Shown here: piece after piece, positions 37,221-52,591 of the stretch | Numbering within the stretch: position 1 is the first letter of the stretch | Layout: every line of letters begins with the position of its first letter | IMG/VR virus record: IMGVR_UViG_3300046171_000271 | From: a virus | Taxonomy: Duplodnaviria > Caudoviricetes | Length of the DNA stretch: 64,000 nucleotides | Reading direction: 5' to 3' (one strand) | The notes under the pieces: generated by a model | Told to the model about the DNA's origin: nothing | Databases searched by the model: none | The model's input: the letters and a program-made list of their open reading frames with translations, nothing else | Translations under genes and position numbers: made by a program

Positions 37221-37278
37221 AGGACACTTTTTAAAGTGGCACACACCCGTCAGGTTTTCGCTTGACGGGTTTTATAAT
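37221..37278 (+). promoter_or_regulatory. early promoter element copy 1
   Basis: AGGACA-N10-TGGCACA; TATAAT at 37273. Confidence 0.7.
37246..37273 (+). terminator. intrinsic terminator of tail-fibre operon
   Basis: CCCGTCAG/TTGACGGG stem followed by TTTT. Confidence 0.75.
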
Positions 37279-37300
37279 ATGTGCATCCACACAGAACAGG

Positions 37301-37762
37301 ATGACTGCACTCGGAACAAAAAGCAGAAATTTTAATCCCATTGGAATTTTCGAGGATTGCAAAAAAAGGCATAATGTAGTGGACAAATCTATTCAACTCG
37401 CACAATTTATTTTTACTAAAAAGGGATACACCTGTTTTGTTCCAAACAATCCAGATACAGACTGTGATTGCGATTTCATTGCATTAAAAGGTTCTGTCAC
37501 CGAACTAGTTTCAGTCAAATCAACGACACAAATGACAAGAAACTCTTCTGATCCAAAACCAGAAATAAACATTAGAACTAATAGCAAATCAAAAGATAAT
37601 TGTGGAGAGGTTACAATCCCAAAAAATTATGACAAAATGATTGGCATCTCTCATCTTGGAACATATTGCATTTGGAGTAAAGAAGATCTCAAAGATGTTA
37701 AAAGTACAAGAGCTTTTGGTGTTAAAGAACATCAAGAATGTGGAGAAATTAAATTAGTATGA
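37301..37762 (+). CDS. putative PD-(D/E)xK endonuclease
   Basis: KKGYTCFVP..CDFIALKG..LVSVKST pattern; ATG 37301 lies downstream of promoter. Confidence 0.5.
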   Translation: MTALGTKSRNFNPIGIFEDCKKRHNVVDKSIQLAQFIFTKKGYTCFVPNNPDTDCDCDFIALKGSVTELVSVKSTTQMTRNSSDPKPEINIRTNSKSKDNCGEVTIPKNYDKMIGISHLGTYCIWSKEDLKDVKSTRAFGVKEHQECGEIKLV

Positions 37763-37857
37763 CTGTCACTGAAAAACTTGTCTTCATTGCATCATTTTTC
37801 TGGTTGATGAACTGGGGAACCCGTGTAACTTCTGCTGCGATCAATGCTTTATCTTGA
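37759..37857 (+). CDS. 32 aa hydrophobic peptide
   Basis: MTVTEKLVFIASFFWLMNWGTRV; ATGA overlap with upstream gene. Confidence 0.45.
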   Translation: MTVTEKLVFIASFFWLMNWGTRVTSAAINALS

Positions 37858-38308
37858 CATCACTGGAAAAGCACCTAAAAGGCGCTGTAAGAAGATTGTA
37901 GAGTGGTTCAAGGCAAAGTATATGCCTAACCACCACTTAGACATTACAGTAGCTCACAGAGGACTTAAGAGGGAACATGCTCAAGGGTTCTGCACTGTTA
38001 TGGACTGCGATCATCGCCCCCGTGAGTTTTTGATTGAAATGGAAACTACTCTTAAGGAGCAAGATTACATCACTGTTCTTCTACATGAACTCTGGCATGT
38101 TTATCAGCATGTTAATGGTTCACTTCGTGATAAGCGTGGTGTGAGACATTGGAAAAATGTTGATTCTGATACTCTTGCCTATAAAGATCAACCTTGGGAG
38201 CATGAAGCAGTAGAGATGGAGAAGAAACTCTATAGTTGCTACATGGGACTAGGCCCCGAATCTTACGGAAAGGGAACACCATTTCCAAACCGCTTGACAA
38301 ATTACTAA
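37844..38308 (+). CDS. zincin (HExxH) metallopeptidase-like protein
   Basis: VLLHELWHVYQ..PWEHEA. Confidence 0.75.
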   Translation: MLYLDITGKAPKRRCKKIVEWFKAKYMPNHHLDITVAHRGLKREHAQGFCTVMDCDHRPREFLIEMETTLKEQDYITVLLHELWHVYQHVNGSLRDKRGVRHWKNVDSDTLAYKDQPWEHEAVEMEKKLYSCYMGLGPESYGKGTPFPNRLTNY

Positions 38309-38321
38309 ATTCTCCTATAAT
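38294..38321 (+). promoter_or_regulatory. sigma70-type promoter
   Basis: TTGACA-16-TATAAT. Confidence 0.7.
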
Positions 38322-38345
38322 ACCTTTGTGAAGGTTGATCAAACT

Positions 38346-38540
38346 ATGAAAAACGAGTTCATCTGTGTCAAACCAAAGTCTTCTAAGGCTAAAAACCGCT
38401 TTGCAAATGAGATGGATCTCTTACATTCTTGTAGGGTTGAGAAACGAGAGAATGGCAAGGTTTTTCTAGCATCAATCAGTGGTAAATACTTCTTTTGGAT
38501 GAATGAATTATCCGATGATCATTGGGAGGTTATCACATGA
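38346..38540 (+). CDS. small hypothetical protein (PKS.KAKNRF family)
   Basis: paralogue at 50500. Confidence 0.7.
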   Translation: MKNEFICVKPKSSKAKNRFANEMDLLHSCRVEKRENGKVFLASISGKYFFWMNELSDDHWEVIT

Positions 38541-38710
38541 TAGAATTTTTTCTTAGTTCATCATTATCATGTGGTGATGCTAGGATTTTAATTAATAAAC
38601 TAGAAAAGCGTCGTACTGACATGGGTGATCATGTTGTCAACGAGCTCATCTATGAAGTAAAAAACCATGTACCGGAGTGTTTTAATGAAAGATCAGTACA
38701 GCATCGATGA
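38537..38710 (+). CDS. small hypothetical protein
   Basis: MIEFFLSSSLSCGDA..PEC. Confidence 0.55.
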   Translation: MIEFFLSSSLSCGDARILINKLEKRRTDMGDHVVNELIYEVKNHVPECFNERSVQHR

Positions 38711-38882
38711 CGGAGAATCAAAACAAGAAAAATGGAACAGAGGATTAGATTTATTCATTGAATCTGTGTTAAAACCAGATCCTGCATTACGTCAATGTGC
38801 TCACAATCAACGTTGTTATCATGAACTAATGGATGTCAGGAATGACATTCTCGAACATCTTAAATCAAAACGCTGGAACTAA
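38667..38882 (+). CDS. small hypothetical protein
   Basis: WNRGLDLFIESVLKPDPALRQCAHNQRCYHELM. Confidence 0.7.
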   Translation: MYRSVLMKDQYSIDDGESKQEKWNRGLDLFIESVLKPDPALRQCAHNQRCYHELMDVRNDILEHLKSKRWN

Positions 38883-39094
38883 TGACTGCACTAATTGAAC
38901 CATCAGATTCTCAGTATTTTACTGAATCGTCTGATAAATTATATGATCGACACACCTACAAAATTGTTAGTAAGTCAGGTGAATCAACGATAGTTGATAA
39001 TTGGATGCAAGTCAGAGAAATCTGGTGGAACAGTAAAAAGTTTTTATCTCATGTTGAAGTTCTTGATGTAAAAAAATTAAAGGGATTCAAATGA
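38882..39094 (+). CDS. small hypothetical protein
   Basis: coupled ORF, 70 aa. Confidence 0.65.
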   Translation: MTALIEPSDSQYFTESSDKLYDRHTYKIVSKSGESTIVDNWMQVREIWWNSKKFLSHVEVLDVKKLKGFK

Positions 39095-39243
39095 AAACCA
39101 CATTAACAGTTAGCAATGATGGTATTCTAACATTTCCAGATGAAGTGCTTGAAGAATTTGGATGGAAAGAGGGAGATGTGTTAGAATGGATTGATAACAA
39201 AGATGGTTCATTTTCTCTCGTTAAATCTGACGATCATGGTTAA
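39091..39243 (+). CDS. AbrB/MazE-like DNA-binding protein (not in ORF track)
   Basis: DGILTFPDEVLEEFGWKEGDVLEW matches AbrB swapped-hairpin pattern (l.iP..i...lg...Gd.l.). Confidence 0.65.
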   Translation: MKTTLTVSNDGILTFPDEVLEEFGWKEGDVLEWIDNKDGSFSLVKSDDHG

Positions 39244-39379
39244 ACATACAAATGAAAAAATACCTCTAGTTCTATCATTTTTAGCATGTTTGTTGTTTGC
39301 TGTTAGTATTATTATTGCCGGATACTTTCATAGCAATATGCATCTTTTTACATTACTAAAAAACACTTCTAATTCTTAG
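39236..39379 (+). CDS. small membrane protein
   Basis: LVLSFLACLLFAVSIIIAGY hydrophobic stretch. Confidence 0.5.
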   Translation: MVKHTNEKIPLVLSFLACLLFAVSIIIAGYFHSNMHLFTLLKNTSNS

Positions 39380-39380
39380 T

Positions 39381-39854
39381 ATGAGTTTTGTTCAATATAA
39401 AAAACATCGAGTCTTTCGTGAAACAGAAGATGTAACTTTCTATGATATTTCAGTAGAAGATTCTAATGCGTCTGACTTAGTTGTTCATAATGGCCCAGCA
39501 ATATCGCCACCTGATGACATTGTAGGTGCAAAACAGTTCTATATTCACTATCATCAAATCGATCATAATCGTGTTCTTTCTGGAACAAGGATATTTGAGT
39601 TAGTTAATCTTGATTGGAAATTTCCATATCATATTGTTCATTTAAATCGTCAAAGTGGAGCATTGATTATTCCTACTAAAACATATCATAGAAGTATTTC
39701 AGGAGAGGACGGATCAATCGTTATCAATCAAGCAATTCGAGATGATGATTTTGATTCTGAAAAGGAGTTCATTCCAGTATCCTCTGGACAAAATAAAGAA
39801 CTTTATAATATACTGGTTAATGAAAAGCCTGTAATTCATAATATAGGTGAGTGA
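39381..39854 (+). CDS. RmlC-like cupin-fold protein
   Basis: FYIHYHQIDHNRVLSG..ALIIP..TYHRSISG. Confidence 0.6.
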   Translation: MSFVQYKKHRVFRETEDVTFYDISVEDSNASDLVVHNGPAISPPDDIVGAKQFYIHYHQIDHNRVLSGTRIFELVNLDWKFPYHIVHLNRQSGALIIPTKTYHRSISGEDGSIVINQAIRDDDFDSEKEFIPVSSGQNKELYNILVNEKPVIHNIGE

Positions 39855-39864
39855 CAAAGAAAAA

Positions 39865-40026
39865 ATGAACTTTACCTCAGAAGAATTGAAGTATCTGCAT
39901 CATGTTCTATCTACTACCAGTTCTTATACTATTGCTAGAGGTGAGCAAATCGATCATCCAACAGTAAAGCATCAAAAATTACAACAAAAAATTCAAGAAC
40001 AACTTGACAAAATCCACTGGAAATAA
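39865..40026 (+). CDS. small hypothetical protein
   Basis: MNFTSEELKYLHHVLS; 53 aa. Confidence 0.5.
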   Translation: MNFTSEELKYLHHVLSTTSSYTIARGEQIDHPTVKHQKLQQKIQEQLDKIHWK

Positions 40027-40282
40027 ATTTGGTTTCAATATGCTATTGGCAACTACAAAAATGAAACGTCCTAGTTTACTTGATTCAACAGGTTCAGTTC
40101 AATTTCCTTTTGAAACATTTCCCTGGAGACTTGAACTAAAAGACGTAGTGTGTCACTTTGAGTGTAAAGAACACATGATAAAGTATCTGAACAGATACGA
40201 ATTTAAACCAAAAGATGTGAAAATTTCTAATCGTTATGGCGAAAAGTATCAGTACAGAGGTAAAAAAAAGAAATCTACATAG
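40004..40282 (+). CDS. small hypothetical protein
   Basis: FPFETFPWRLE..CHFECKEHMIKYLNRY. Confidence 0.65.
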   Translation: MTKSTGNKFGFNMLLATTKMKRPSLLDSTGSVQFPFETFPWRLELKDVVCHFECKEHMIKYLNRYEFKPKDVKISNRYGEKYQYRGKKKKST

Positions 40283-40781
40283 TGGTAGATGCGAAACAGG
40301 TATGAGTGATGAATTGCCTATTAAACCGCACACACAAATCTTAGTTCTCAACAATAGTTACGAACCAATTAATGTTACAAATTGGAAACGTGCTATTGTT
40401 CTTCTTCTTAAGGAAAAAGCACAAGCATTATCAAAACGAGTCATCAGATTAGTTAATTATATTCGTATCCCTTTTGCAAAAATCATCGCTCATACACCAT
40501 CAAGAGCGATGATTTACAAGAGGGACAATAATAAGTGTCAGTATTGTGGGGCTACAAGATCACTTACTATTGATCATGTTATCCCCAGAAGTCGTGGAGG
40601 TGGGGACACTTGGGATAATTTAGTTATTGCATGTTCATCATGTAATGTCAAGAAAGGAGATAAATTTCTTGAACAAACTAACATGAAACTTGCAAGAAAA
40701 CCTTTTACCCCCTATAATAAGGTACAATTTTCATTATCTGGTACTCAAGTGCCTGAATGGCAGGAGTTTTTATTTGTATGA
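40236..40781 (+). CDS. HNH endonuclease (likely start 40302)
   Basis: LVLNNSYEP..IYKRDNNKCQYCG..LTIDHVIPRSRGGGDTWDNLVIACSSCNVKKG. Confidence 0.9.
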   Translation: MAKSISTEVKKRNLHSGRCETGMSDELPIKPHTQILVLNNSYEPINVTNWKRAIVLLLKEKAQALSKRVIRLVNYIRIPFAKIIAHTPSRAMIYKRDNNKCQYCGATRSLTIDHVIPRSRGGGDTWDNLVIACSSCNVKKGDKFLEQTNMKLARKPFTPYNKVQFSLSGTQVPEWQEFLFV

Positions 40782-40978
40782 AAGAAAAAGTTAGAGCACA
40801 AGTAAAGAGTCGCTGGTATTATATTTTCTGGGGACTTGCAACAATTTTTGTAGTATGGGGGCAGATTTATGTTGGAACTGGTTACCGTATTGTGGCAAAT
40901 AAAATGATTGAACTATTAAATAAGGTAGACGGTGTTTTATTGTATAAAAGTGAAGAATCGCTTAAAGATTACTTTTAA
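40757..40978 (+). CDS. small membrane protein
   Basis: WYYIFWGLATIFVVWGQIYVG. Confidence 0.6.
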   Translation: MAGVFICMKEKVRAQVKSRWYYIFWGLATIFVVWGQIYVGTGYRIVANKMIELLNKVDGVLLYKSEESLKDYF

Positions 40979-41049
40979 TGTAAAGAAATATAAATTAAGT
41001 TAGTATATCACCATAATAGTGATATAATACTGTTAATTAAGAAACTCTC

Positions 41050-41313
41050 ATGACTCTTCCAAAGGATAAAAAACCAAAAAAAGAGGAAATTGATAGCATG
41101 AAAATTGCAGTAAAAGAGGTTGATATCAGAGCAATTCATCCAGATAAAATGGAAGATTTCGCTGCACATATGGTAGAACAATTAAAAGAAGAAACACAAA
41201 GTTTTTATGATAAACTATGGGAACTTTTGGAAACTGAACTTGGTGATACTGTTTTCTGTGATCAGATGGCAGATAGAATCTATGATTTGGTAAAGGAACA
41301 CTACAATGACTGA
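41050..41313 (+). CDS. hypothetical protein
   Basis: MTLPKDKKP..AIHPDKMEDFA. Confidence 0.6.
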   Translation: MTLPKDKKPKKEEIDSMKIAVKEVDIRAIHPDKMEDFAAHMVEQLKEETQSFYDKLWELLETELGDTVFCDQMADRIYDLVKEHYND

Positions 41314-41340
41314 AAAAGAAGGACAACTAAAAGAATCTCA

Positions 41341-42192
41341 ATGAATCAAATTTTGTTATCTGATTGTGTGTCGGGGATGAAGACACTTGGTAGTGAATCT
41401 ATTGACTTATGCGTCACATCCCCTCCTTATGATGATCTTCGTTCATATAATGATAGTTCATCATGGAACTTTGATACATTTAAGAATGTCGCCACTGAAC
41501 TTTATCGTGTGATGAAGATTGGCGGTGTTGTTGTATGGGTGATTGGAGATGCTACAGTCAAAGGTAGTGAAACTGGTTCTAGTTTCCGTCAGGTTCTACA
41601 CTTTATGGATCTTGGGTTTCTATTACATGACACCATGATCTATGAGAAAAATGGTAGTCCTTTTCCAGCAAAGAGGACAGGTAACAGATATTCACAAATC
41701 TTTGAGTATATGTTTGTCTTCTCAAAGAAAACTAAACCAAAGACTGCACATTTGCTGTGTGATAAACCAAATCGATGGGCAGGATATACACACTTTGGCA
41801 AGGGAACTATCAGGACTAAAGATGGACAACTAAAAGATAGGCAAATTAAACCCATCCCGGAATTTAGTCCAAGAAATAACATCTGGAAATATAATACAGG
41901 CAAAGGATACTCAACTAAAGATGATGTTGCCTTTGAACATCCCGCAATCTTTCCCGAAAAGTTAGCTAAAGATCATATTCTTACATGGAGTGATGAGGGA
42001 GATATAGTTTTAGATCCTTTTATGGGTTCAGGAACTACTGCTGTTTGTTGTTTAGAAACGAAGAGAAAGTTTATAGGATTTGAGATTGATAAAACTTATC
42101 ATGACATCTGCACTAGGAGATTAGAACAGCATGTGACAGTTGAAGAAGCGTCACTACCGGAGTCGAACCCTCTGGAGGATGCTCTATATTGA
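41341..42192 (+). CDS. beta-class amino DNA methyltransferase (N4-C likely)
   Basis: motif IV DLCVTSPPY N-terminal; HPAIFPEKL; motif I VLDPFMGSGTT C-terminal. Confidence 0.92.
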   Translation: MNQILLSDCVSGMKTLGSESIDLCVTSPPYDDLRSYNDSSSWNFDTFKNVATELYRVMKIGGVVVWVIGDATVKGSETGSSFRQVLHFMDLGFLLHDTMIYEKNGSPFPAKRTGNRYSQIFEYMFVFSKKTKPKTAHLLCDKPNRWAGYTHFGKGTIRTKDGQLKDRQIKPIPEFSPRNNIWKYNTGKGYSTKDDVAFEHPAIFPEKLAKDHILTWSDEGDIVLDPFMGSGTTAVCCLETKRKFIGFEIDKTYHDICTRRLEQHVTVEEASLPESNPLEDALY

Positions 42193-42213
42193 TTGTGTTA
42201 AAGCAATTTACAC

Positions 42214-42867
42214 ATGACTGCAACAACAATCCGCGACTACTTCAGCGATTCTAATATCGTTGCTGAAATTGTCCGCGAACTCAACACGGAGATCGGGTTC
42301 TGTCCCATTCTTCGCAATCTCAAACGAGAGAAGGATTATGGCGTCATTGATAACGACAGCATCACATTCCGTGAACTAGGGGCCGAAGATCGGAATGAGG
42401 TGTTTGTCTATCTGGGACGTATCCTTGAGTCTGTTCTTACCTGCCAACTGGCAAAGTGCGATTCTTTCGATGTAAAGAAGGATCGCAGTTCTTCTGGTGA
42501 TGTTACCATCAACGGACGCATCTGGGAGATCAAAGGAACATCTGGTAAGAACTCTTGGACTGGTTCTACACATGCCACCAAGAAAGAAGACGACAAGATG
42601 GACTTCATCGGTATCAAGTATGGACTGAATGAAGACATCAACGTCTTTGATATCTTTACTGGTGACTCTAAACTGATTGAAGAAATCTTCATCGGTGTAT
42701 TCGATCAGATCGAATTGATCCGCCGGGGTAGTGCTACTCAGTCCAATTCTCGCACTTCTCTTCTCATCGGTATTGATGAGTATGAGACAGTTAAGGAGCA
42801 AATTGCATGGGGTTGGCTCAAGAAACCACAACGCAATGGTAAGTATCTTCAACTATGTGCCGCCTGA
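42214..42867 (+). CDS. putative type II restriction-like PD-(D/E)xK endonuclease
   Basis: E..LT..SSGDVTINGRIWEIKG; starts 21 nt after the MTase. Confidence 0.55.
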   Translation: MTATTIRDYFSDSNIVAEIVRELNTEIGFCPILRNLKREKDYGVIDNDSITFRELGAEDRNEVFVYLGRILESVLTCQLAKCDSFDVKKDRSSSGDVTINGRIWEIKGTSGKNSWTGSTHATKKEDDKMDFIGIKYGLNEDINVFDIFTGDSKLIEEIFIGVFDQIELIRRGSATQSNSRTSLLIGIDEYETVKEQIAWGWLKKPQRNGKYLQLCAA

Positions 42868-42928
42868 GGTAGTGGCACACGGGGGGTTTCGCACCTCCCT
42901 TTTTCATGTATTATTAAAGAGTCAAAGG
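42856..42928 (+). promoter_or_regulatory. early promoter element copy 2 with terminator-like hairpin
   Basis: TGTGCCG-N10-TGGCACA, GGGGGG/CCTCCC stem + T-run, TATTAT at 42909, AGAGTCAAAGG. Confidence 0.8.
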
Positions 42929-42936
42929 AACACACC

Positions 42937-43371
42937 ATGGCAACCCGCTCACGCATCGGCATCGAACTCAAAGATGGTTCTATTCTGTCTGCCTATCATC
43001 ACTGGGATGGTTATCCGCAGTGGTTGGGACGTATTCTGAACACACATTACACCTCCCGTGAACAGGCAGCAGATCTGATTGACGGTGGCGATATGTCATC
43101 TTGCTGGAGTAATGAGTGCTGGACTGGTAAAGAAATTGCTCCTTATGTGAGAGAGATTAAAGAAACCGCAGAATATGGTCCCCAGTATTATTCTCAACGT
43201 GGTGAGAATTGCCCTCCTCGTTATGATCAAACCCGTGAAGAGTTTCTGTCTAATGGCGAAGAGTATTCTTATATTTTTACGAGTGCAGGATGGATATGCT
43301 ATAATATGAATGAGTTCAATGACAATGATCCCGAAATCGTTGAAATTCCCTCTGGAGCACTTGCAGTATGA
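42937..43371 (+). CDS. hypothetical early protein
   Basis: MATRSRIGI..YHHWDGYP..GGDMSS. Confidence 0.75.
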   Translation: MATRSRIGIELKDGSILSAYHHWDGYPQWLGRILNTHYTSREQAADLIDGGDMSSCWSNECWTGKEIAPYVREIKETAEYGPQYYSQRGENCPPRYDQTREEFLSNGEEYSYIFTSAGWICYNMNEFNDNDPEIVEIPSGALAV

Positions 43372-43550
43372 ACGGAGCACCATTGATTGTGGATTTGGAA
43401 GAACTGGAGGTGCTGCAAACCGCCCTCCAGAAGTTACCTAAATCTGATAGCAAAAGTCCAAAAGTCTCTTTGCTTTATAATAAAATTGTTTCTGTTAAAG
43501 AAGCGATTGAACTTCAAGAACTCTACCTTACAGATCCGCGCAATGACTGA
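43368..43550 (+). CDS. small hypothetical protein
   Basis: ATGA-coupled ORF. Confidence 0.5.
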   Translation: MNGAPLIVDLEELEVLQTALQKLPKSDSKSPKVSLLYNKIVSVKEAIELQELYLTDPRND

Positions 43551-43668
43551 CACCGAAAAGCAGTATTGGCAAGAAATAGCCATCGATTTCTGGAAAGAAA
43601 TTGAAAAAGAAGCAGAAGAACTTGAGGTAACTGTTGATTATTACATCGAGGAGTTTTTTACATCATGA
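43543..43668 (+). CDS. small acidic hypothetical protein
   Basis: EAEELEVTVDYYIEEF. Confidence 0.55.
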   Translation: MTDTEKQYWQEIAIDFWKEIEKEAEELEVTVDYYIEEFFTS

Positions 43669-43841
43669 CTGAAGAACAAAAGTTTAAAGTTATCATCGAG
43701 GAAACTAATGGTTGGTTTCTCTATGATAAAAATGCACAAAATCTGACTCGCGCTGATGGTATTAAGTGGGTTGATGATGCCATGAGAGATGGTATCTCAC
43801 CCGATAGATTGCGCGTTGTTCGACAGGAGTGGGGACAATGA
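43665..43841 (+). CDS. small hypothetical protein (not in ORF track)
   Basis: MTEEQKFKVIIEETNGW..DGISPDRLRVVR. Confidence 0.6.
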   Translation: MTEEQKFKVIIEETNGWFLYDKNAQNLTRADGIKWVDDAMRDGISPDRLRVVRQEWGQ

Positions 43842-44260
43842 ACGGAAATCTTGAACCTGAAGAATCTGTAATGAATGACAAAGTTATTGCTTCTCGTAAG
43901 TCAGCGTCTGTAATGAAAACTGTATCAGGAAAATTGTCTGATATTATTGCTGCTCTGGGGTGGGATTGCTATGATGATGTTGTAGTTGAAATTGGTGGTA
44001 CTCAGGTTTCTGGTATTCATCAACCCGAAAATTACAATAAAAAATGGGCAGCACCTTATGGTGCTCGCAAGTACAATAAAGATGCGTTCATTGTTATCAA
44101 GAATCGCACACGTTCTCCATTTGAGCCATCAAAACCAAACCCTGATCTTGTAGCACATCATCTTAAACCAGAAGTTGTTGAAGAGAAAAGTGAAAAAGAA
44201 ATCGCTGCTGAAATGAAGAAAGCAGATGATGAAAAGGGATATGACACTTACAGTAAATGA
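43838..44260 (+). CDS. hypothetical protein
   Basis: LGWDCYDDVVVEIGGT..KYNKDAFIVIKN. Confidence 0.7.
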   Translation: MNGNLEPEESVMNDKVIASRKSASVMKTVSGKLSDIIAALGWDCYDDVVVEIGGTQVSGIHQPENYNKKWAAPYGARKYNKDAFIVIKNRTRSPFEPSKPNPDLVAHHLKPEVVEEKSEKEIAAEMKKADDEKGYDTYSK

Positions 44261-44269
44261 GGGAGAAAA

Positions 44270-44521
44270 TTGATGAAACCTGACATGATTGTGACATGGA
44301 AAGATCATCTTAAAAAAGGATGGATCTGGAAAGCAAATGTTGAACTTGCAATGGAAGATGTTGGAGAATCCAGTTTTTATTCTGTCGATGTTTATGTTGT
44401 AGCACCAAATCAAAGTCTTGCTCAATACATTGTGACTACGATGTATCCAGAGTTTGAGAGTTTGTGTATTGATGATGAACCTATGACATCAGAGACTTAT
44501 GGTAAAGTCACTACACAATGA
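44270..44521 (+). CDS. small hypothetical protein
   Basis: 83 aa ORF. Confidence 0.6.
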   Translation: MMKPDMIVTWKDHLKKGWIWKANVELAMEDVGESSFYSVDVYVVAPNQSLAQYIVTTMYPEFESLCIDDEPMTSETYGKVTTQ

Positions 44522-45016: not shown

Positions 45017-45161
45017 GTATCAAGTTTCATACAAAAAAGCGAAGAAGAAAGGTTATGCTTGTCATAAAGCAGTTTTCTATAAGATTGAAGATGCAATGTT
45101 CTGGGAAGAACATGTAAAGAATAACCTTGAGGGCAGGGACGTTCAACTAACTGTCCACTGA
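45009..45161 (+). CDS. small basic hypothetical protein
   Basis: MIKYQVSYKKAKKKG..FYKIEDAMFWE. Confidence 0.6.
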   Translation: MIKYQVSYKKAKKKGYACHKAVFYKIEDAMFWEEHVKNNLEGRDVQLTVH

Positions 45162-45203
45162 TCCAACTACTGCCACCTAATCCCTGTATATTAAAAAAGT
45201 CAA
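45136..45203 (+). promoter_or_regulatory. early promoter element copy 3
   Basis: GGGACG-N10-TGTCCAC, TATATT at 45187, AAGTCAAA. Confidence 0.7.
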
Positions 45204-45215
45204 ACAAACGACATC

Positions 45216-45362
45216 ATGAACAACGATTTCACCGACACCCCTCAAATTGAAGAAGTTCTTTACATGAACGATGAATCTATCGATCAATTCCTTGATGAGC
45301 AAGGTGACATCATTGGTATGAATGTTGAATGTGATGAGTTTGATACAAATATGACTGTGTAA
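45216..45362 (+). CDS. small acidic hypothetical protein
   Basis: 48 aa ORF after promoter. Confidence 0.55.
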   Translation: MNNDFTDTPQIEEVLYMNDESIDQFLDEQGDIIGMNVECDEFDTNMTV

Positions 45363-45430: not shown

Positions 45431-45465
45431 AAGGCATCCTAAATAAGGGTGCCTTATTTCTTTTT
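45431..45465 (+). terminator. hairpin terminator with late-promoter-like CTAAATA at the loop
   Basis: AAGGCATCCT-AAATA-AGGGTGCCTT then ATTTCTTTTT. Confidence 0.65.
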
Positions 45466-45621
45466 ATGACACCTCACAAATACGATCACATACTAATCCA
45501 TAGAAATCCATACAATAACAAACCAATCACAATCGAATACAGAGATCCTAAATTCATACAAACACGAATCTATTTTCAGTGTGAGAGTGATTATTTCAGG
45601 AGTAAAAAGACAAAAGTATAA
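45466..45621 (+). CDS. 51 aa hypothetical protein
   Basis: MTPHKYDHILIHRNPYNNKP..YFRSKKTKV. Confidence 0.5.
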   Translation: MTPHKYDHILIHRNPYNNKPITIEYRDPKFIQTRIYFQCESDYFRSKKTKV

Positions 45622-45665
45622 CTGTCACAGTGGGGGTTGCTAAACCCCTTTTTTAATGCAATAAT
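45608..45665 (+). promoter_or_regulatory. early promoter element copy 4
   Basis: AGACA-N10-TGTCACA; TTGCTA..CAATAAT. Confidence 0.65.
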
Positions 45666-45671
45666 ATATTC

Positions 45672-46554
45672 ATGAAAAACATTCATCTCCAACACCCCGA
45701 AGATTCTATTCTCTCGGGTGATCTTTCCGTTCTCGATTGGTTCCTGACTCCTTCACATCTTTCTGTAAAGATGGACGGATCACCAGCTATTGTGTGGGGT
45801 AAAAATCCTGCCACTGGTAATCATTTTGTCGGAACTAAATCTGTCTTCAATAAAGTTAAAATCAAGATCAATGAATCGCATGATGACATCGACAGGAATC
45901 ATGAAGATGCAGTCGCTGAGATCCTTCATGCTTGCTTCGATTATCTTCCTTTCACGGATCACGTCATCCAAGGTGATTTTATTGGTTTCGGAGGGAGTGA
46001 TACTTTCACTCCTAATACACTCACTTATGTCTTCGACGAGACTGTAACTGAAAATATCATCGTAGCACCTCATACTTTCTATGAATGTGAGAATGATCTG
46101 CGCGATGCTATTGCACATCCGATGGAGTATTTCAACATTCCAAGCACCGAGCATGTGAAAATGGTGCAACCAAAGTGTTGGGAAGTTGATGAAGATTTTG
46201 ATGAAATTGTTGGTTTCGCTCGTCAGATGGCACAACTGGTGAAGTTTGTTGACGAGAAAGAAGCAGCTAAACTTAGAATCGAACTGAACAAATGTATCCG
46301 CAGAAGGTGTCGATGTGGTGCCAGATACATTCGACAATTCTATGCTGATTTCATTCTGGTTCTTGATCAAATCTATCAAGGATGATGTGTTGTTTATGTG
46401 TCGCAACAATGGTGCTAAAGCATACATTGGCAACAAACAATGTGAGGGTGAAGGTTATGTTCGCAGCAATGAGTTTGGCATCTATAAGTTAGTCAATCGC
46501 TATGAGTTTTCTCGCGCAAACTTCAACAATATGAAGGCATGGGGACAGTCCTGA
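45672..46554 (+). CDS. protein with ligase/nucleotidyltransferase motifs (frameshift ~46300)
   Basis: SVKMDGSP (I), VIQGDF (III), EGEGYV (IV), YKLV (V). Confidence 0.6.
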
Positions 46555-46612
46555 TAGTGTCCACAGAGGTGCCCAGAAGCGCCTGTAGCGTGTATTATTA
46601 AAGAGTCAAAGG
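46541..46612 (+). promoter_or_regulatory. early promoter element copy 5
   Basis: GGGGACA-N10-TGTCCAC, TATTAT at 46593, AGAGTCAAAGG. Confidence 0.8.
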
Positions 46613-46621
46613 GATTTCACC

Positions 46622-46984
46622 ATGACTACTGAATTTGCTGATTTCGTTGCAACTCAAGACGCTCGCAATCAAATTCAACTTAACATCAGAAAGTATTGCC
46701 TGATGTTGTGTGATTGCCTGCTGCAGGACATGCAAAGCAAGCATCCCAATTGTAATTATGATTTTTATATTAAAGAAGGTGGGCGAAAGTATCACAAAAT
46801 TGTGATGAATACTGGTAATCAACGTTCTGTCCATGCTTTCGTTGATAAGAAGACTGGTGAAGTTTACAAGGCAGCATCATGGAAAGCACCTGCAAAGCAC
46901 GTTCGTTTTAACTTGCTAGAGATCAATTCCCGTGAGGAATGTTTTGTTCGTGCAGATTGGGCAGGAGATTATCTCTACATGTGA
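46622..46984 (+). CDS. hypothetical early protein
   Basis: GRKYHKIV..SVHAFVDKKTGEVYKAASWKAPAK. Confidence 0.75.
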   Translation: MTTEFADFVATQDARNQIQLNIRKYCLMLCDCLLQDMQSKHPNCNYDFYIKEGGRKYHKIVMNTGNQRSVHAFVDKKTGEVYKAASWKAPAKHVRFNLLEINSREECFVRADWAGDYLYM

Positions 46985-47036
46985 CAATGATCAAGGTGTC
47001 CACTGCATTGCCAGGGACACCTTTTTCGTGTAAACT
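46980..47036 (+). promoter_or_regulatory. early promoter element copy 6
   Basis: TGTGACA-N10-TGTCCAC; TTGCCA-17-TAAACT. Confidence 0.75.
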
Positions 47037-47057
47037 GTTATCAACAACAAAGGTTCA

Positions 47058-48229
47058 ATGTTTTCCCTCCGTCCACATCAGCAGCGTGCATGTGAATCAA
47101 TGCGGAAATATGAGAAGGGAACTGTCATCATCCCCGACAGGTGGTGGCAAGACGATGTGCATGATTCAGGATACATTGACTGCGTTCGATGATAGTGTGA
47201 ATCGCACAGTTGTTGTAGTTGCACCGCGTATTTTGTTGGCGGAGCAGTTATGTTCTGAGTTCTTAGAACATATCACAAACGTCAGTGTTCTTCATGTTCA
47301 CTCAGGGGAGACACATTTCTTCAGCACAACTAAAACAAAGCAGATTAAGTTGTGGAGTAAGTACACTCGTGGGAGAAAACTTATCTTCACGACTTACAAC
47401 AGTTTGCAGAAGATTGTTGATGCTGAGATTGACATTCACACCGCTTACTTTGACGAAGCACATAACAGTGTGAAGCGTAACTTCTTCGCTCCGACAGAAC
47501 AACTTAGTCAATCTAATTCACGGGCGTTCTTTTTCACTGCGACACCAAAGTACAGCAGCACAGTGTTCAAACCTGGCATGAATATGCCTGAGATTTATGG
47601 TAACACAATCTGCAATGTGCCTGCTCCTGAGTTAGTCGAAGGTGGATACATCTTGCCGCCCAAAGTTGTAGTGAAAGAGATGGAAATGGCAGAGAAAGGT
47701 TTGAACTATGATCGTGATGCAAATTATATGCTTCATGCGATCAATGATGAGAATGTTGATAAGATCTTGATTGCTGCTCGTACTACCAAACAGATCATCG
47801 GGTTGGTATCACAAACTGATTTTTGTGTTCAGTTACAAGCAGCGTGGTTATTCTTGGATGATGATCACATCGAAGACTGGTGCAATTATCGACGGTGAGA
47901 AGGTTGATCGTGAGACATTCTTCGAGACATTGAATACATGGGGCAAGACAAAAGGCAAGCGGTTTGTTGTCATTCACCATAGCATTTTGTCGAAGGTATC
48001 AATGTCAATGGATTGGAAGCAGTTCTTTTCATGCGAAACATGGACTACATTGGTATCAGTCAAACTATCGGACGTGTTATCAGATTGGGTGACAAGTCTA
48101 AGCAGTTTGGTTTAGTTGTTGTCCCTGTATTTGACAAGGTTGGTATCACTACCAGTCGCAAAGTTCAAGCAGTTGTTGATACCGTATTTCAACAAGGTGA
48201 ACCCGCCTATTTCTACCATCAAACGCTAA
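47058..48229 (+). CDS. SF2 (DEAH) helicase, type III Res-like (about 4 frameshifts)
   Basis: LRPHQQRA, PTGGGKT, VVAPR, FDEAH, TATP, QTIGRVIR. Confidence 0.85.
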
Positions 48230-48233
48230 TCTC

Positions 48234-48761
48234 ATGCTTAATTTCAAAACTTTTGAACTGAATTGTTTAGCACATCTTATTCCAAATCTTGTGGAATATA
48301 CTGACAACAACCTACGCTTTCCTAAAGCAGGAGAAATGATTGAAAAAGCGTATGAAGTTTATAGTAACGGACAACTGAAAAGAGTTAATTAACCTGGTGT
48401 TGATCTTATCACTCCCGATGGTGTAACTTATGAGTCAAAAGTAACACAATTCAGGAACAAATCTCAGATGGCAGTGAGAAGTTTAATTCTTAAGAATCGT
48501 AGAGCAGCAACACCTCATGAAGACAAATTAGCAGATTATTTTATCATCACTGACATTAAAAAGGGACAGCATGTTGTATTCCATCATCGAAACTTTTTAA
48601 TTTCAAAGACAATGGTGCAACACTTACTGCAAGTGCTAATCCTACCTATCGATGACTTTTTCTTGACTGGATGTAAATCAAAAGATACAAGTTCTGATGA
48701 TTATTTTGCAGAATCTGAACAATTTGATTATGAGTATATCAGAAGTTTTCGCAGTGCATGA
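48234..48761 (+). CDS. putative PD-(D/E)xK nuclease with one in-frame TAA (48390-48392)
   Basis: GEMIEKA..PGVDLITPDGVTYESK..ADYFII; same frame before and after the stop. Confidence 0.5.
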
Positions 48762-48904
48762 TTATGTTAGATTATGACATTGAAAAGTCTATCCTTGAGT
48801 TATCATTAAGGAAGACAAGTTTGCAGAAAGAAATAGAAGAAATTGATTTGCAGATTGCGTTCTTGATTGAACAGAAGGAGGAGCAAGAGAAAATGTAAAC
48901 AATA

Positions 48905-48977
48905 TGTGCCAAAAGTATTGGTGGCACAAACATTTACCAAACACACTTATTTCCTGTATATTAAAAGAGTCAAAGGG
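48905..48977 (+). promoter_or_regulatory. early promoter element copy 7
   Basis: TGTGCCA-N10-TGGCACA, TATATT at 48957, AGAGTCAAAGG. Confidence 0.85.
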
Positions 48978-48986
48978 ATTCTTCCT

Positions 48987-49274
48987 ATGAACTACACTCT
49001 CCAACAACTGAAAGATCGAGTCAACACTCTCATCGAACAACAGGGAGAAACTGCATACTGTGCAGCATGGATTTACACTGCCGAAGATTGTGTTGTGTAC
49101 GATGAAAATGATGAACCACAATATCCTGCTCATACAGATCAGGAGTTGAGTGAAAGAATCTTTAATGATGTTGGGAACATTGATTACATCTATCAGGTGA
49201 TTCAAGAATGTGTTGATGAGGTTGTAGAAGAGCAAGTTATGCTTCAACAACAAGAATTGGCGGAGGTTGAATGA
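48987..49274 (+). CDS. hypothetical early protein
   Basis: MNYTLQQLKDRVNTLIEQQGE..CAAWIYT; start follows promoter. Confidence 0.65.
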   Translation: MNYTLQQLKDRVNTLIEQQGETAYCAAWIYTAEDCVVYDENDEPQYPAHTDQELSERIFNDVGNIDYIYQVIQECVDEVVEEQVMLQQQELAEVE

Positions 49275-49516
49275 ACACTCTCGCACAACTTCGCAAACTT
49301 TCTATCTACAAACCAATGCAAGAATCTAAGTTCAATCTCTACGGCGAACTTATCCGCCCTAATGGTTTTCAAAAGTATGACATTCTGAGTTACATTGCCG
49401 AGACAAGAGAGGAAGCAATCGCTACATGTAGGAAGAACAATCCTTACTTCAATATCATCACAATTCAGGTAGATGATACTGTACCTGAAGTCGTCAAAGT
49501 TCAATCTATCGCCTAA
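49271..49516 (+). CDS. small hypothetical protein
   Basis: ATGA-coupled, 81 aa. Confidence 0.6.
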   Translation: MNTLAQLRKLSIYKPMQESKFNLYGELIRPNGFQKYDILSYIAETREEAIATCRKNNPYFNIITIQVDDTVPEVVKVQSIA

Positions 49517-49519
49517 CTG

Positions 49520-49717
49520 ATGCAAACAACGACTGCAACTTATCAGATTCAGGTAACAACTGATGAAGGTTCGATGTCATTTTACAAGTCAATGCCCACC
49601 AAACCAAAGACATCGAAGGGGATCAAATCACAGAACAATAAATTATCAAAATGGGTAGAAAAAACCTATCCTAATTTCATCTCTTACGAAATTATTCCCA
49701 CTGACTTAATCTTCTGA
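49520..49717 (+). CDS. small hypothetical protein
   Basis: MQTTTATYQIQVTT..GIKSQNNKLSKWVE. Confidence 0.65.
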   Translation: MQTTTATYQIQVTTDEGSMSFYKSMPTKPKTSKGIKSQNNKLSKWVEKTYPNFISYEIIPTDLIF

Positions 49718-49878
49718 TGAAAGTAACTAAATCCACAAGAGCACCAAGAATGGGCAGGCAAATTGTCTGTCCTGAGTGTAACACAGTCGCAACAGTTTAT
49801 CACTTTGCATGGAGTGGATTACAGTGTCAACATTGTGAACAAATGATTGATAAGTATGATTGGGGTGTAAAACAATGA
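49717..49878 (+). CDS. small zinc-ribbon protein (not in ORF track)
   Basis: CPEC..VYHFAWSGLQCQHC. Confidence 0.65.
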   Translation: MKVTKSTRAPRMGRQIVCPECNTVATVYHFAWSGLQCQHCEQMIDKYDWGVKQ

Positions 49879-50087
49879 CAAATAATAATATCAAAGATGT
49901 CACAAATTCACCAAAAGATTGGGAAGATTTTTGGTACTCTCCTGAGAAGTTTGGTGTGTGGGCTTACTATGACTCAGAAAGTGAGGGACGAGAGTATAAG
50001 AAACCGGACAAGGTTAGTAGATATGTCGAGGACGTATTGAACGGAAGAAATATAATGTGCAAACGTGAATCACCATTATCAGAGTGA
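49875..50087 (+). CDS. small hypothetical protein
   Basis: KDVTNSPKDWEDFW. Confidence 0.5.
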   Translation: MTNNNIKDVTNSPKDWEDFWYSPEKFGVWAYYDSESEGREYKKPDKVSRYVEDVLNGRNIMCKRESPLSE

Positions 50088-50095
50088 AAACAATA

Positions 50096-50170
50096 TGTGC
50101 CAAAAGTATTGGTGGCACATAACATCACCAAACACGATCAAATCGTGTATTGTATACACAAGTCAAGGGA
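50096..50170 (+). promoter_or_regulatory. early promoter element copy 8
   Basis: TGTGCCA-N10-TGGCACA, dyad identical to copy 7; TATTGT at 50148. Confidence 0.85.
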
Positions 50171-50179
50171 TTCACCCAA

Positions 50180-50503
50180 ATGTCACTCTTCACACAAGGT
50201 TGGAAAGCGGAAACTACTTTCGGTGATGATGTTACTGCACATCACATGAACACCCGTTCAGTGTATCGTTTCAAGGAGAATAGTGACTTCGCTATCACTC
50301 ATTCTGCGCGATATGTTGGTGACGAGAGTGTTGATCAATTCGCACTAACTTTCACTGAGGTTACTGCATACCATGACAGTGGAAATGTGTTATCTCAAGT
50401 CACAAAAACACTGGGAGTTTATGACACTTGGTTAGAGGCATTTTACCATGCCATTGATCTCATTCTTCAAAAGTCCGGTAAAATCACTGCACCTACATCA
50501 TGA
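50180..50503 (+). CDS. hypothetical early protein
   Basis: MSLFTQGWKAETTFG; start after promoter. Confidence 0.6.
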   Translation: MSLFTQGWKAETTFGDDVTAHHMNTRSVYRFKENSDFAITHSARYVGDESVDQFALTFTEVTAYHDSGNVLSQVTKTLGVYDTWLEAFYHAIDLILQKSGKITAPTS

Positions 50504-50679
50504 CTGCTTTTGTAACACCCAAGTCCAAAAAAGCAAAAAACAGATTCTCTAATCTGATGCAAAATCAACCAGAATGTTTCATCGAGCAGGATAAAGGTGA
50601 TCGGGTGTTTCTAACATCTGCCAATGGTAAAAATCACTTTTGGGTGTCACTTATTGATGATAAAGATTGGGAGCATTGA
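50500..50679 (+). CDS. small hypothetical protein (PKS.KAKNRF family; not in ORF track)
   Basis: MTAFVTPKSKKAKNRFSN..GDRVFLTSANGKNHFW..DKDW. Confidence 0.65.
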   Translation: MTAFVTPKSKKAKNRFSNLMQNQPECFIEQDKGDRVFLTSANGKNHFWVSLIDDKDWEH

Positions 50680-50761
50680 AATGTGATGATCAAAACTAAA
50701 AAGGAGTGGGCAAAATCCTACTCCTTGTTTTACACTTTTCTGCTGTTACTTTTCCTCTAAG

Positions 50762-51095
50762 ATGTTATTTGTCTCTGGCGAATCACCATTCAAAAGTATC
50801 ACCCATGATGTCTATGAGTTCTTTACATCACTGTATGAAATCTGCATCTGATGTTGAAGTATTTCACACAGACTTGAGTGATGATAATGCCTTAGGATTT
50901 ACAGAGGTTAATGGTGATGAACAGTTTGTTCAGATTCATAATGATCTGAGTGAGAAAGACTTTACCATCACATTATTGCATGAACTTGTGCATGTGTTTC
51001 AGAATGAATGGGGTGTAAATGATGAGATTGAGAGAGAAGATGAAGCCTATAGATTGGAGGGGATTCTATACAATAACTGGTGCATGACAAAATGA
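50762..51095 (+). CDS. zincin (HExxH) metallopeptidase-like protein (frameshift ~50845)
   Basis: ITLLHELVHVFQ..EDEAY. Confidence 0.65.
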
Positions 51096-51103
51096 TAAGA
51101 ATA

Positions 51104-51178
51104 TGTGTCACAAATACAAGTGGCACATAATATCACCAAACAGGATTAAAACCTGTATTGTATAAGAGTCAAAGAGAT
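51104..51178 (+). promoter_or_regulatory. early promoter element copy 9
   Basis: TGTGTCA-N10-TGGCACA, TATTGT at 51156, AGAGTCAAAG. Confidence 0.8.
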
Positions 51179-51190
51179 TCAATCAATCCG

Positions 51191-51433
51191 ATGAAATTCG
51201 CAACCATCAACTTCTGTATTTCCGGCAGCAACACTTCTCGTTGTCATCACACTTGTTCTGTCACTGACATTATGGGGACAGCAATCCAGAATCTGATTGA
51301 TACCAATGGACACAACACATTTAAGTTGAATGATGGCACAATCTTGAGCAATGTTGTTATCTGTTCAATGACAGATCGTCCCGTCGCAACTATGAACCAC
51401 TTCGGATTTTTGACACGCTTGCTTGGTATCTGA
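51191..51433 (+). CDS. hypothetical early protein
   Basis: start 13 nt after promoter leader. Confidence 0.5.
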   Translation: MKFATINFCISGSNTSRCHHTCSVTDIMGTAIQNLIDTNGHNTFKLNDGTILSNVVICSMTDRPVATMNHFGFLTRLLGI

Positions 51434-51475
51434 TTCTGTTCCTTATCTAACACAAACTTCCTTTTCTTCATTATC

Positions 51476-51743
51476 ATGCAAGTCACCAATTCTGCCACCA
51501 TTGTTGATTATTTCCCTGAGGCATTTATTGCTGAAGCAGATGACACCAAAGGGATGAAAGTAACAATCAAAAGGTTCATCAAACGAGTGTATTTCCGCGC
51601 TAATGGTATGAAATCGTATTCAGTGAGTTGTTGCAACTGATGCCAAGAATGAGTGGCAATCTCGTATCGCTAAGGGTGCAATAGTTACTGACTTCAATAC
51701 AGACAAAATGGATCGTTCTGAGTACATGCCTATGAGTTGCTGA
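51476..51743 (+). CDS. hypothetical protein (frameshift ~51630)
   Basis: MQVTNSATIVDYFPEAFIAEAD..KRFIKRVYF. Confidence 0.5.
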
Positions 51744-51813
51744 TAACATTCACTCTGTTCATTCTTACCCTACGGGTATGTCTTTTCTCTCCAACTTTAC
51801 CTACTCAAAACTA

Positions 51814-51957
51814 ATGCAAACTACTGTCACCTTAAATGATACTCAATGGGATATAATCCTAGAAGCAGTAGAAGATTATGCTGTGTTGGTAAGTGAAGAT
51901 GTATCAGATAAATGTGGTGAGATTCTAGACATTATAGAGGCAGAAAGAACCAATTAG
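51814..51957 (+). CDS. 47 aa acidic hypothetical protein
   Basis: LNDTQWDIILEAVEDYA; weakly like the 53055 ORF. Confidence 0.5.
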   Translation: MQTTVTLNDTQWDIILEAVEDYAVLVSEDVSDKCGEILDIIEAERTN

Positions 51958-51984
51958 ACTAATACCTAGGATGTTTATGTTTAT

Positions 51985-52020
51985 GGGTAAAATGTAAGTA
52001 ATTCTACTTATGTTTTACCC
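51985..52020 (+). other. 16-bp stem-loop
   Basis: GGGTAAAATGTAAGTA-ATTC-TACTTATGTTTTACCC, fully paired with two G-U on + strand. Confidence 0.75.
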
Positions 52021-52153
52021 TAAAATGTATTAAAAAACGTTTTAAAATGCCTTTATAAATATACCTCGCTATTTTATCTTATTGAGAGTTATTCTCTGGA
52101 TACTACCCATTAATACCCTTTTAAATGTGCTGAGTCTTGTGATCTTGGCGTCC

Positions 52154-52182
52154 ATTCTATCAGCAACTCCCAGAAAAGTCAA
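52154..52182 (-). promoter_or_regulatory. minus-strand sigma70-type promoter
   Basis: TTGACT-17-TAGAAT. Confidence 0.65.
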
Positions 52183-52258
52183 CACCCCTCGATATAATTT
52201 TCCCAGCGTCAGTGTTTGCTAATTTCTGAGATTTGTGCCTATAAATATGTTCGGCGCG

Positions 52259-52287
52259 TTGACAATAATACTCCGATAGATTAGACT
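52259..52287 (+). promoter_or_regulatory. sigma70-type promoter
   Basis: TTGACA-17-TAGACT upstream of 52317. Confidence 0.7.
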
Positions 52288-52316
52288 CTAAAAGCATCAC
52301 CAACTGGAGCAGATTC

Positions 52317-52493
52317 ATGTCGGTTTCTTACAACCAATCACAGAAGCAACGTTACAGAATCACCCTGGATATAGAGGTGTACGATGACTTCAATCCCCAT
52401 CAAATTGACTTCGAGGAGTTATTTGGAATGGAAGGAACCGAGCGGGTTGTTGATAGTTACGTAGAGGATTTAAGTAACCCTATCAGTTGGTGA
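52317..52493 (+). CDS. 58 aa hypothetical protein (not in ORF track)
   Basis: MSVSYNQSQKQRYRITLDIEVYDDFNPHQIDFEELF. Confidence 0.65.
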   Translation: MSVSYNQSQKQRYRITLDIEVYDDFNPHQIDFEELFGMEGTERVVDSYVEDLSNPISW

Positions 52494-52533
52494 TTAACAG
52501 GCCTATCATATTTTGCGTGGAATGACAGTGTTA

Positions 52534-52591
52534 TGTGCCAGTCTTATTTGCGGCACACGATATAAGCACGGGGGTGTAGATGCCTTATATT
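52534..52591 (+). promoter_or_regulatory. early promoter element copy 10
   Basis: TGTGCCA-N10-CGGCACA; TATATT at 52586. Confidence 0.75.

Follow-up and report, generated by a model that had tools for sequence, protein, structure and literature searches.

Eleven copies of a two-fold symmetric dyad phased to a -10 element, probably early-promoter cassettes shared by T4-like cyanophages, in a viral accessory region

The viral DNA IMGVR_UViG_3300046171_000271 (Duplodnaviria; Caudoviricetes), whose full length of 64,000 nucleotides (nt) we refer to as the window, has a GC content of 37% and contains an accessory region at 36.5-53 kb that is filled with small plus-strand open reading frames (ORFs) and has long structural ORFs on either side. 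The interval is the counterpart of the gp40-gp93 region of cyanophage Syn9, located between tail-fibre and baseplate genes. Nucleotide matches in the 44-52 kb part are patchy (78-93%) and are all to Synechococcus T4-like cyanophages, and the best sequencing-run matches to the window are seawater and marine metagenomes. The accessory region carries, between 37.2 and 52.6 kb, eleven copies of a cassette with the general architecture TGTG[C/A]CA-N10-TG[G/T]CACA (the dyad), followed at 35-36 nt by TATNNT (the -10 element) and a short conserved 5' untranslated region (UTR), without a -35 element. The genes downstream of the cassettes mostly encode domains of unknown function (DUFs) or are without assigned function.

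All eleven copies are on the plus strand. An earlier reading of the letters alone (the original prediction) had listed ten of them; all ten right arms are present at the coordinates it gave, each with a 10-nt spacer, but its count is too low, as an eleventh copy has its right arm at 42149. Specifically, copy 1 (37220-37278) comprises the dyad TAGGACA-N10-TGGCACA (37220-37243; right arm 37237), TATAAT at 37273, and an ATG at 37301. The eleventh copy (42132-42190) comprises the dyad TGTGACA-gttgaagaag-CGTCACT (42132-42155; right arm 42149), located within the 3' end of a methyltransferase ORF, TATATT at 42185 (+36 from the right-arm start), and an ATG at 42214. Copy 2 (42856-42914) comprises TGTGCCG-N10-TGGCACA (right arm 42873) with the upstream gene's stop codon inside the dyad spacer, TATTAT at 42909, the UTR AAAGAGTCAAAGG, and an ATG at 42937. 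Copy 3 (45135-45192) comprises AGGGACG-N10-TGTCCAC (right arm 45152), TATATT at 45187, and an ATG at 45216; copy 4 (45606-45665) comprises AAAGACA-N10-TGTCACA (right arm 45623), an ambiguous -10 element, AATAAT, at 45660 (+37), and an ATG at 45672; and copy 5 (46541-46598) comprises GGGGACA-N10-TGTCCAC (right arm 46558), TATTAT at 46593, the same UTR AAAGAGTCAAAGG, and an ATG at 46622. Copy 6 (46980-47036) comprises TGTGACA-N10-TGTCCAC (right arm 46997), TAAACT at 47031, and an ATG at 47058 that starts a helicase gene. Copy 7 (48905-48962) has the perfect dyad TGTGCCA-N10-TGGCACA (right arm 48922), TATATT at 48957, and an ATG at 48987; copy 8 (50096-50153), which is paralogous to copies 7 and 9, also has a perfect dyad (right arm 50113), with TATTGT at 50148 and an ATG at 50180; and copy 9 (51104-51161) has TGTGTCA-N10-TGGCACA (right arm 51121), TATTGT at 51156, and an ATG at 51191. 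Copy 10 (52534-52591) has TGTGCCA-N10-CGGCACA (right arm 52551), TATATT at 52586, and an ATG at 52657 that starts the gene for a Kyano_Gp96 family protein.

The arm pattern proposed originally, TGTG(C/A/T)CA or GGACA on the left and TG(G/T)C(A/C)C on the right, describes the copies overall, with departures in the left arms at 42873 (TGTGCCG) and 45152 (GGGACG) and in the right arm at 52551 (CGGCAC). A -10-like hexamer 34-36 nt past the right-arm start is present at nine of the ten listed sites; at the tenth, 45623, the hexamer at +37 is ambiguous because it lies only 6 nt before the ATG. Nine of the eleven copies have a gap of 21-29 nt between the -10 element and the ATG (23 nt in the eleventh copy). 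At six sites the -10 element, of TGTAT type, leads into A(A/G)AGTCAAAG(G) and an ATG, the kind of leader word that had been described; the word is paired with a -10 element at no other place in the window.

Two of these copies call for a comment on the gene that follows. The best -10 element of copy 4 (TGC-AATAAT, 45660-45665) ends 6 nt before the ATG, and for this reason the gene may be expressed as a leaderless mRNA. The helicase gene behind copy 6 (47058-47898, plus strand, MFSLRPHQ...) contains, near 47127, a single G more than contig L047, which is 94% identical and has the ORF intact (389 aa); the extra G is a frameshift or an assembly error.

The occurrence of the dyad cassette in the window is non-random. 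When all 5-mer inverted repeats separated by 0-24 nt are counted without bias, GTGCC-N12-GGCAC is the window's top dyad (4 observed versus 0.011 expected), and TGTGCCA-N10-TGGCACA, at three or fewer mismatches, has 8 matches versus 2.2 +/- 1.4 in shuffled sequence, with none of 100 shuffles reaching 8. A full-length position weight matrix that included the spacer was noisy, with shuffles scoring similarly, and a joint model of arms plus -10 element was used instead. This joint matrix, built from other phages only and comprising 14 arm positions and a -10 element at +34 to +38, finds 7 matches in the window versus a chance expectation of 1.9 +/- 1.4 (both strands); all seven are on the plus strand at 42.8-52.6 kb and were in the original list. 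The matrix misses the copies at 37237, 45623, and 46997, which have good arms and differing -10 hexamers.

Comparison of 46 non-redundant N10 elements reveals that the two arms are versions of one half-site. In particular, the matrix of the left arm correlates with the reverse-complemented matrix of the right arm (r = 0.95), and the symmetry continues within the spacer, where positions 2-3 on either side are T, giving a half-site of approximately TGTG[C/A]CA[G/C]TT and a full site that is a 24-bp palindrome. The right arm carries 8.9 bits of information and the left arm 6.0 bits; the dyad overlaps the end of the upstream ORF in 6 of the 11 window copies, which may explain the weaker left arm. 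Pairing at the RNA level is not kept: in 14 of the 46 elements no more than 3 of 7 pairs can form, and the right arm stays perfect in a class whose left arm is AAACCA. The arm symmetry, the symmetric spacer, and the unconserved RNA pairing therefore support a two-fold symmetric binding protein, and with it the prediction that the dyad is a true two-fold symmetric operator.

The dyad is phased to the -10 element. Promoters were gathered without selecting on the dyad, through the leader word in IMG/VR and through 80 contigs around the orthologues of 42937-43371, and, when anchored on the -10 element and leader, place the start of the right arm 35 or 36 nt ahead of the -10 element in 60 of 72 non-redundant cases (TGGCACA arms at 36 nt, TGTCCAC arms at 35 nt). 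The phasing is kept despite unrelated sequence between dyad and -10 element: for one gene, whose orthologous promoters were compared across about 50 contigs, the arms are kept, and free variation is seen in the spacer and in the 27-29 nt ahead of the -10 element. The position of the upstream stop codon is loose, ranging from 41 nt before the dyad to within or past it. As had been noted, a good -35 element is lacking; specifically, 57 non-redundant elements show no information peak from -40 to -18, and weak matches (9/12) are present at three window sites. If the hexamer occupies -12 to -7, the dyad would reach from about -65 to -42 and be centred near -53, slightly closer than the -55 first suggested; its centre would be separated from that of the -10 element by about 43 bp (four helical turns). 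The spacing of exactly 10 nt between the arms holds throughout the window, but N11 variants exist in relatives, for example at the Syn9 gp63 promoter.

Other assignments of the dyad sequence were considered and rejected. TTGAC in the spacer (CCAGTTGAC), which is common in relatives, could be read as a displaced -35 element brought into place by hairpin extrusion; as a general reading this was dropped, since 9 of 11 window spacers have no TTGAC, and their arms are kept. A sigma-54 promoter (TGGCAC-N5-TTGC) would account for the TGGCAC word, but here TGGCAC is a palindrome arm, is located 35-36 nt before a sigma-70-type -10 element, and is followed by no conserved TTGC.

The same dyad, phased -10 element, and 5' UTR are present in Syn9 and other cyanophages, in agreement with the proposed link to a cyanophage early-gene element. 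In Syn9, the architecture precedes gp55, gp61, gp63, gp68, gp73, gp75, gp78, gp79, and gp90, clustered at 43-53 kb, with a leader (TATTCTATAAGAGTCAAAGGGATTCAC) nearly identical to that of the window; in P-TIM40, the dyad and phased -10 element occur at seven sites at 48.9-55.0 kb; and about 100 metagenomic cyanophage contigs carry the architecture as well. Counts of CA-N10-TGKCMM-N26-31-TANNNT, forward and reverse, exceed those of the reversed control in named phages: 16 matches versus 5 in S-PM2, 27 versus 2 in P-SSM2, 28 versus 9 in P-HM2, 24 versus 2 in P-TIM40, and 8 versus 2 in S-SM2. Full TGTG[C/A]CA-N10-TG[G/T]CACA dyads were seen directly in P-TIM40, P-SSM2, and S-PM2, and the element is thus common to phages of both Synechococcus and Prochlorococcus. 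Scanning with arms only has a high background (70 matches in Syn9 versus 22 in shuffled sequence) and is useful only in combination with the -10 element.

Doron et al. in 2016 reportedly described a novel early-gene element in Syn9 and P-TIM40 that is conserved among T4-like cyanophages, and the Syn9 and P-TIM40 genes behind the element are said to be early. The window dyad cassette is very probably this element: both are located upstream of small early-region genes, neither is a sigma-70 -35/-10 promoter, both are abundant and conserved in T4-like cyanophages, and the window motif is found in the same two phages, in the matching genome region. A search of the open literature found no paper describing the motif sequence. 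The cassette is accordingly not new in kind, and the window provides eleven further clean instances of a known cyanophage element; what is added here is the shared half-site, the unconserved RNA pairing, the absence from hosts, the nested terminators, and the breakpoints in dyads, although the dyad symmetry, the centre near -53, the absence from hosts, and the nested terminators may figure in the 2016 description as well.

The P-TIM40 copies (L201-L207, 48.9-55.1 kb) have an extra conserved block, CACTACCG, about 10-17 nt past the right arm, which is absent from the Synechococcus-phage copies. A second motif, approximately CCTCTAAAG-N-GTC-N5-6-TAGTGTAA, is present near the ATG, with no dyad, in the 100 nt before orthologues of the window gene at 42937 in contigs L041, L070, L073, L074, L076, L081, L083, L086, L090, L093, and L095; it looks like a second promoter class of the same gene family.

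The segment between right arm and -10 element often contains the signals of a terminator. Terminator-like hairpins with T-runs are present there in copies 1 (37245-37270), 2 (42881-42899, G6/C6 with a T-run), 4 (45632-45649), and 6, where the right arm itself forms part of the hairpin and T-run. In the wider set, the segment is more structured than its shuffles (mean -7.9 versus -5.6 kcal/mol, p = 1e-5), with a hairpin of -8 kcal/mol or better in 32 of 66 elements and a T-run as well in 10 of 66.

The cassettes also appear to double as swap junctions for accessory genes. [quoted passage not shown] At copy 2, the break is at the right arm in L047, where a methyltransferase-nuclease block is missing and the left arm is different; at copy 3, it is directly past the right arm in L067; at copy 4, a 1.75-kb insertion in L058 and L033 is located exactly between right arm and ATG; and at copy 6, it is at the left arm, with insertions in L058, L089, and L047 and, in L047, the arm repeated at both ends of the insertion. 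The density of homology-block endpoints is 19.1 per 100 nt in the elements versus 9.8 at other gene junctions, in a locus set chosen around one gene; because many endpoints are the anchor gene's ATG, where coding homology starts, this enrichment is supportive only.

The N6/N4 DNA methyltransferase gene (PF01555, window 41341-42192) is an indel, missing in L067, L063, L058, L032, and L033; in these contigs the downstream 217-aa ORF (42214-42867) is kept behind a canonical dyad cassette, and in L047 it is located elsewhere, behind a copy-7-like cassette. The 153-aa ORF at 37301-37762 is an insertion relative to L047, L067, L075, and L076, in which the copy-1 promoter runs straight into sequence beginning at 37759; the two flanking L047 alignments overlap by 8 nt.

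This organization resembles that of the promoter early stem-loop (PeSL) cassettes of T4-type phages, described in coliphage and vibriophage (Arbiol et al. 2010, PMC2839356; Comeau et al. 2014, PMC4122927) in papers that did not take in cyanophages. [quoted passage not shown] PeSLs are also located at indel or replacement junctions of close relatives, a placement that is clear here at copies 2, 3, 4, and 6 and for the cassettes as a whole is suggested by an endpoint density biased by the choice of loci. A PeSL, however, has near-consensus -35 and -10 elements 17 nt apart, whereas the cyanophage cassette has a distal 24-bp dyad and no -35 element, and a study of S-PM2 reported few classical PeSLs (PMC4503421). 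The cassettes are PeSL-like in architecture and, because the -10 element is present and the -35 element absent, are not PeSLs as defined.

We consider it probable that the eleven copies represent an early-promoter cassette common to T4-like cyanophages, built on a dimer-bound operator and served by a factor that would probably be phage-specified. Each cassette is a unit of about 95 nt that extends from near one small gene's stop codon to the next ATG and comprises, in order, the 24-bp operator, a variable stretch of 27-29 nt that often is the upstream gene's terminator hairpin, TATNNT (in most cases with TG ahead of it), and a leader that includes a ribosome-binding site. Transcription would start about 7 nt past the hexamer, which would place the operator centre near -53. 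A dimeric DNA-binding protein on the operator would contact host RNA polymerase at the -10 element, most likely as an activator standing in for the -35 contact; it would be specified by the phage and either enter along with the DNA or be synthesised within the first minutes. The window genes behind the cassettes would be expressed early. The repeated cassettes would, in addition, serve as homology patches for accessory-gene swaps between related phages.

Several points weigh against this interpretation. The identity with the element of Doron et al. 2016 rests on what that study is reported to have described and on the match in Syn9 and P-TIM40. The conservation of the copies could stem in part from gene conversion or recombination rather than from selection on binding. 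The left arm, besides being weaker, is often in upstream coding sequence, and the N11 variants and the two right-arm types (TGGCACA and TGTCCAC) indicate that the geometry is not rigid. The breakpoint enrichment is modest and biased by the choice of loci. Finally, because picocyanobacterial promoters commonly are without a clear -35 element, a missing -35 element is no proof that an activator is needed.

As regards a protein that would bind the dyad, a Pfam search of the approximately 49 ORFs at 36.5-53.5 kb recognised no helix-turn-helix protein, and Syn9 gp230, annotated as a 'transcriptional regulator', has no Pfam match. The late promoters that depend on P2 Ogr or P4 Delta are partly similar: they carry a dyad, TGT-N12-ACA, centred near -55, and are activated by a zinc-finger protein. 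They resemble the cyanophage cassette in lacking a good -35 element and in the position of the dyad, some 53-55 nt upstream of the start; their activator, small, encoded by the phage, and working on host polymerase, would be comparable to the factor proposed here. They differ from the cassette in sequence, in arm spacing, in being late, not early, and in the zinc-finger nature of the activator. The only zinc-ribbon ORF of the region (49717-49878) was rejected as an Ogr-like general activator; it is absent from Syn9, S-PM2, P-HM2, and P-TIM40. A further candidate trans-factor is the product of a 50-aa plus-strand ORF at 39091-39243 that matches the AbrB/MazE (SpoVT-AbrB) family (PF04014, E = 2.6e-7, above the curated cut-off), a match shared by 17 of 18 homologues. 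The AbrB/MazE family consists of DNA-binding dimers, which makes the product a testable candidate. Homologues are located in or beside the element-rich region in Syn9 (gp92), P-TIM40, S-PM2, and P-SSM2 and, weakly, in P-HM2; among the six genomes compared, none was detected in the element-poor S-SM2. A homodimer prediction for the ORF scored 0.14 versus a mark of 0.42, a value that weighs on neither side, and a PDB sequence search with it returned spurious repeat-protein matches only. The evidence is circumstantial and makes the product a weak candidate for the dyad-binding factor; such phage proteins may be antitoxin-like instead.

The same protein figures in the reading that competes best with an activator, in which the dyad is a repressor operator through which an early phage protein, for example the AbrB/MazE-like product, shuts the early promoters at the early-to-middle switch, the promoters first firing from the TG-TATNNT element alone. 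The dimeric activator originally proposed is sustained as to dyad symmetry and a two-fold symmetric binding protein, but the sign of regulation is less secure, as a repressor operator would fit the geometry equally. A repressor requires no factor at time zero; a phage-private site agrees with the absence of the dyad from hosts; the AbrB/SpoVT-domain ORF accompanies the elements in the manner described above; and weak -35 boxes are common in picocyanobacterial promoters. We nevertheless regard this reading as somewhat unlikely: classical repressor sites overlap the polymerase footprint in a way that an operator spanning -65 to -42 does not, the tight phasing to the -10 element suits a stereospecific contact, and MazE-like phage proteins may be antitoxin mimics, their co-occurrence with the element being drawn from six genomes.

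A host transcription factor conserved in Synechococcus and Prochlorococcus and borrowed for immediate expression would account for expression at time zero with no need of packaged proteins, and would allow one motif to serve phages of both host genera. The original prediction had raised such a hijacked regulator, together with a scan of host genomes for the dyad, and the outcome of the scan weakens the proposal. In five marine Synechococcus genomes, WH7803 among them and 13.6 Mb in all, the 14-base dyad at two or fewer mismatches is not enriched (66 matches versus 67 in the control), and GTGMCA-N10-TGKCAC has 7 matches versus 4 for the reversed pattern, all 7 in long open reading frames and without a phased -10 element. 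The joint model of dyad and -10 element finds 1 match in 1.2 Mb (half) of WH7803, versus 0.4 expected and versus 7 in the 64-kb window. Nor is the dyad a site of NtcA (GTA-N8-TAC) or CRP type (TGTGA-N6-TCACA); its core is CA-N10-TG, its outer part GTG-N16/18-CAC, and its centre near -53. NtcA sites, centred at -41.5, are known in cyanophage genomes (Sullivan et al. 2010, PMC3037559) and are alike in that the dyad of a dimeric factor takes the place of the -35 element upstream of a -10 element, but half-site, spacing, and position (-53 versus -41.5) differ, and a host regulon is lacking for the cyanophage dyad. A borrowed host factor in general is thus improbable and one with a native regulon unlikely, although a local host regulator with one or two sites might still be involved. 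Since the host genomes make no use of the dyad, the binding protein is more likely phage-specified than a borrowed host regulator.

It is quite improbable, in our view, that the cassettes are mainly recombinational, that is, PeSL-like shuffling sites whose symmetry derives from a recombinase or nuclease site and not from transcription. Such sites would be expected to show what copies 2, 3, 4, and 6 show, including the left arm of copy 6 doubled around the L047 insertion, as well as the doubled endpoint density, the paralogy of cassettes 7, 8, and 9 across the regulatory unit only, and the precedent of PeSLs (PMC2839356, PMC4122927); they would not need a fixed 35-36 nt to a -10 element across unrelated sequence. 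Many of the endpoints are merely ATGs in a locus set chosen around one gene, and a recombinational role is in any case compatible with a promoter role. Hardly credible is a dyad that acts as RNA, as a 7-bp hairpin stabilising the 3' end of the upstream transcript or forming part of a tandem terminator, since, even though perfect copies fold and a second, terminator-like hairpin follows the dyad at four sites, the pairing is not conserved (the AAACCA class included), the position of the dyad is set by the downstream -10 element and not by the upstream stop codon, and the loop of 10 nt contains no T-run.

Elsewhere in the accessory region, an HNH endonuclease ORF (PF01844, E = 4e-17) is located at 40236-40781. 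A gene pair encoding a small basic protein (PKS.KAKNRF) and an HExxH peptidase is present twice, at 50500-51095 and 37844-38540, and the peptidase copy at 50805-51095 matches Peptidase_M78 (IrrE/ImmA-like, E = 1e-5).

Returning to the promoter cassette and its phage-specified dimer, we propose, tentatively and as a possibility that goes further than the evidence compels, that the cassettes define a phage-private promoter class, in which a cyanomyovirus-encoded dimer, acting on a 24-bp palindrome that the host does not use, would time the accessory region as an activator, a shut-off repressor, or both. This dimer would arrive together with the DNA or be produced during the first minutes, and the AbrB/SpoVT-like early protein (39091-39243) would be one candidate.

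A considerable fraction of marine Synechococcus and Prochlorococcus falls victim to T4-like cyanophages. In T4, the proteins that retarget host RNA polymerase are Alt, Mod, MotA, and AsiA. T4-like cyanophages are without all four (PMC2984593). The operator described here, at a fixed face of the helix and a fixed distance from the -10 element and common to phages of both host genera, sharpens the question of how their first genes fire before host-like promoters on the same DNA, and a dyad unused by the host directs the search for the factor at phage proteins. As swap junctions, the cassettes would extend the PeSL idea to cyanophages, and a phage-private dyad class, if true, would provide a regulatory circuit for T4-like cyanophages.

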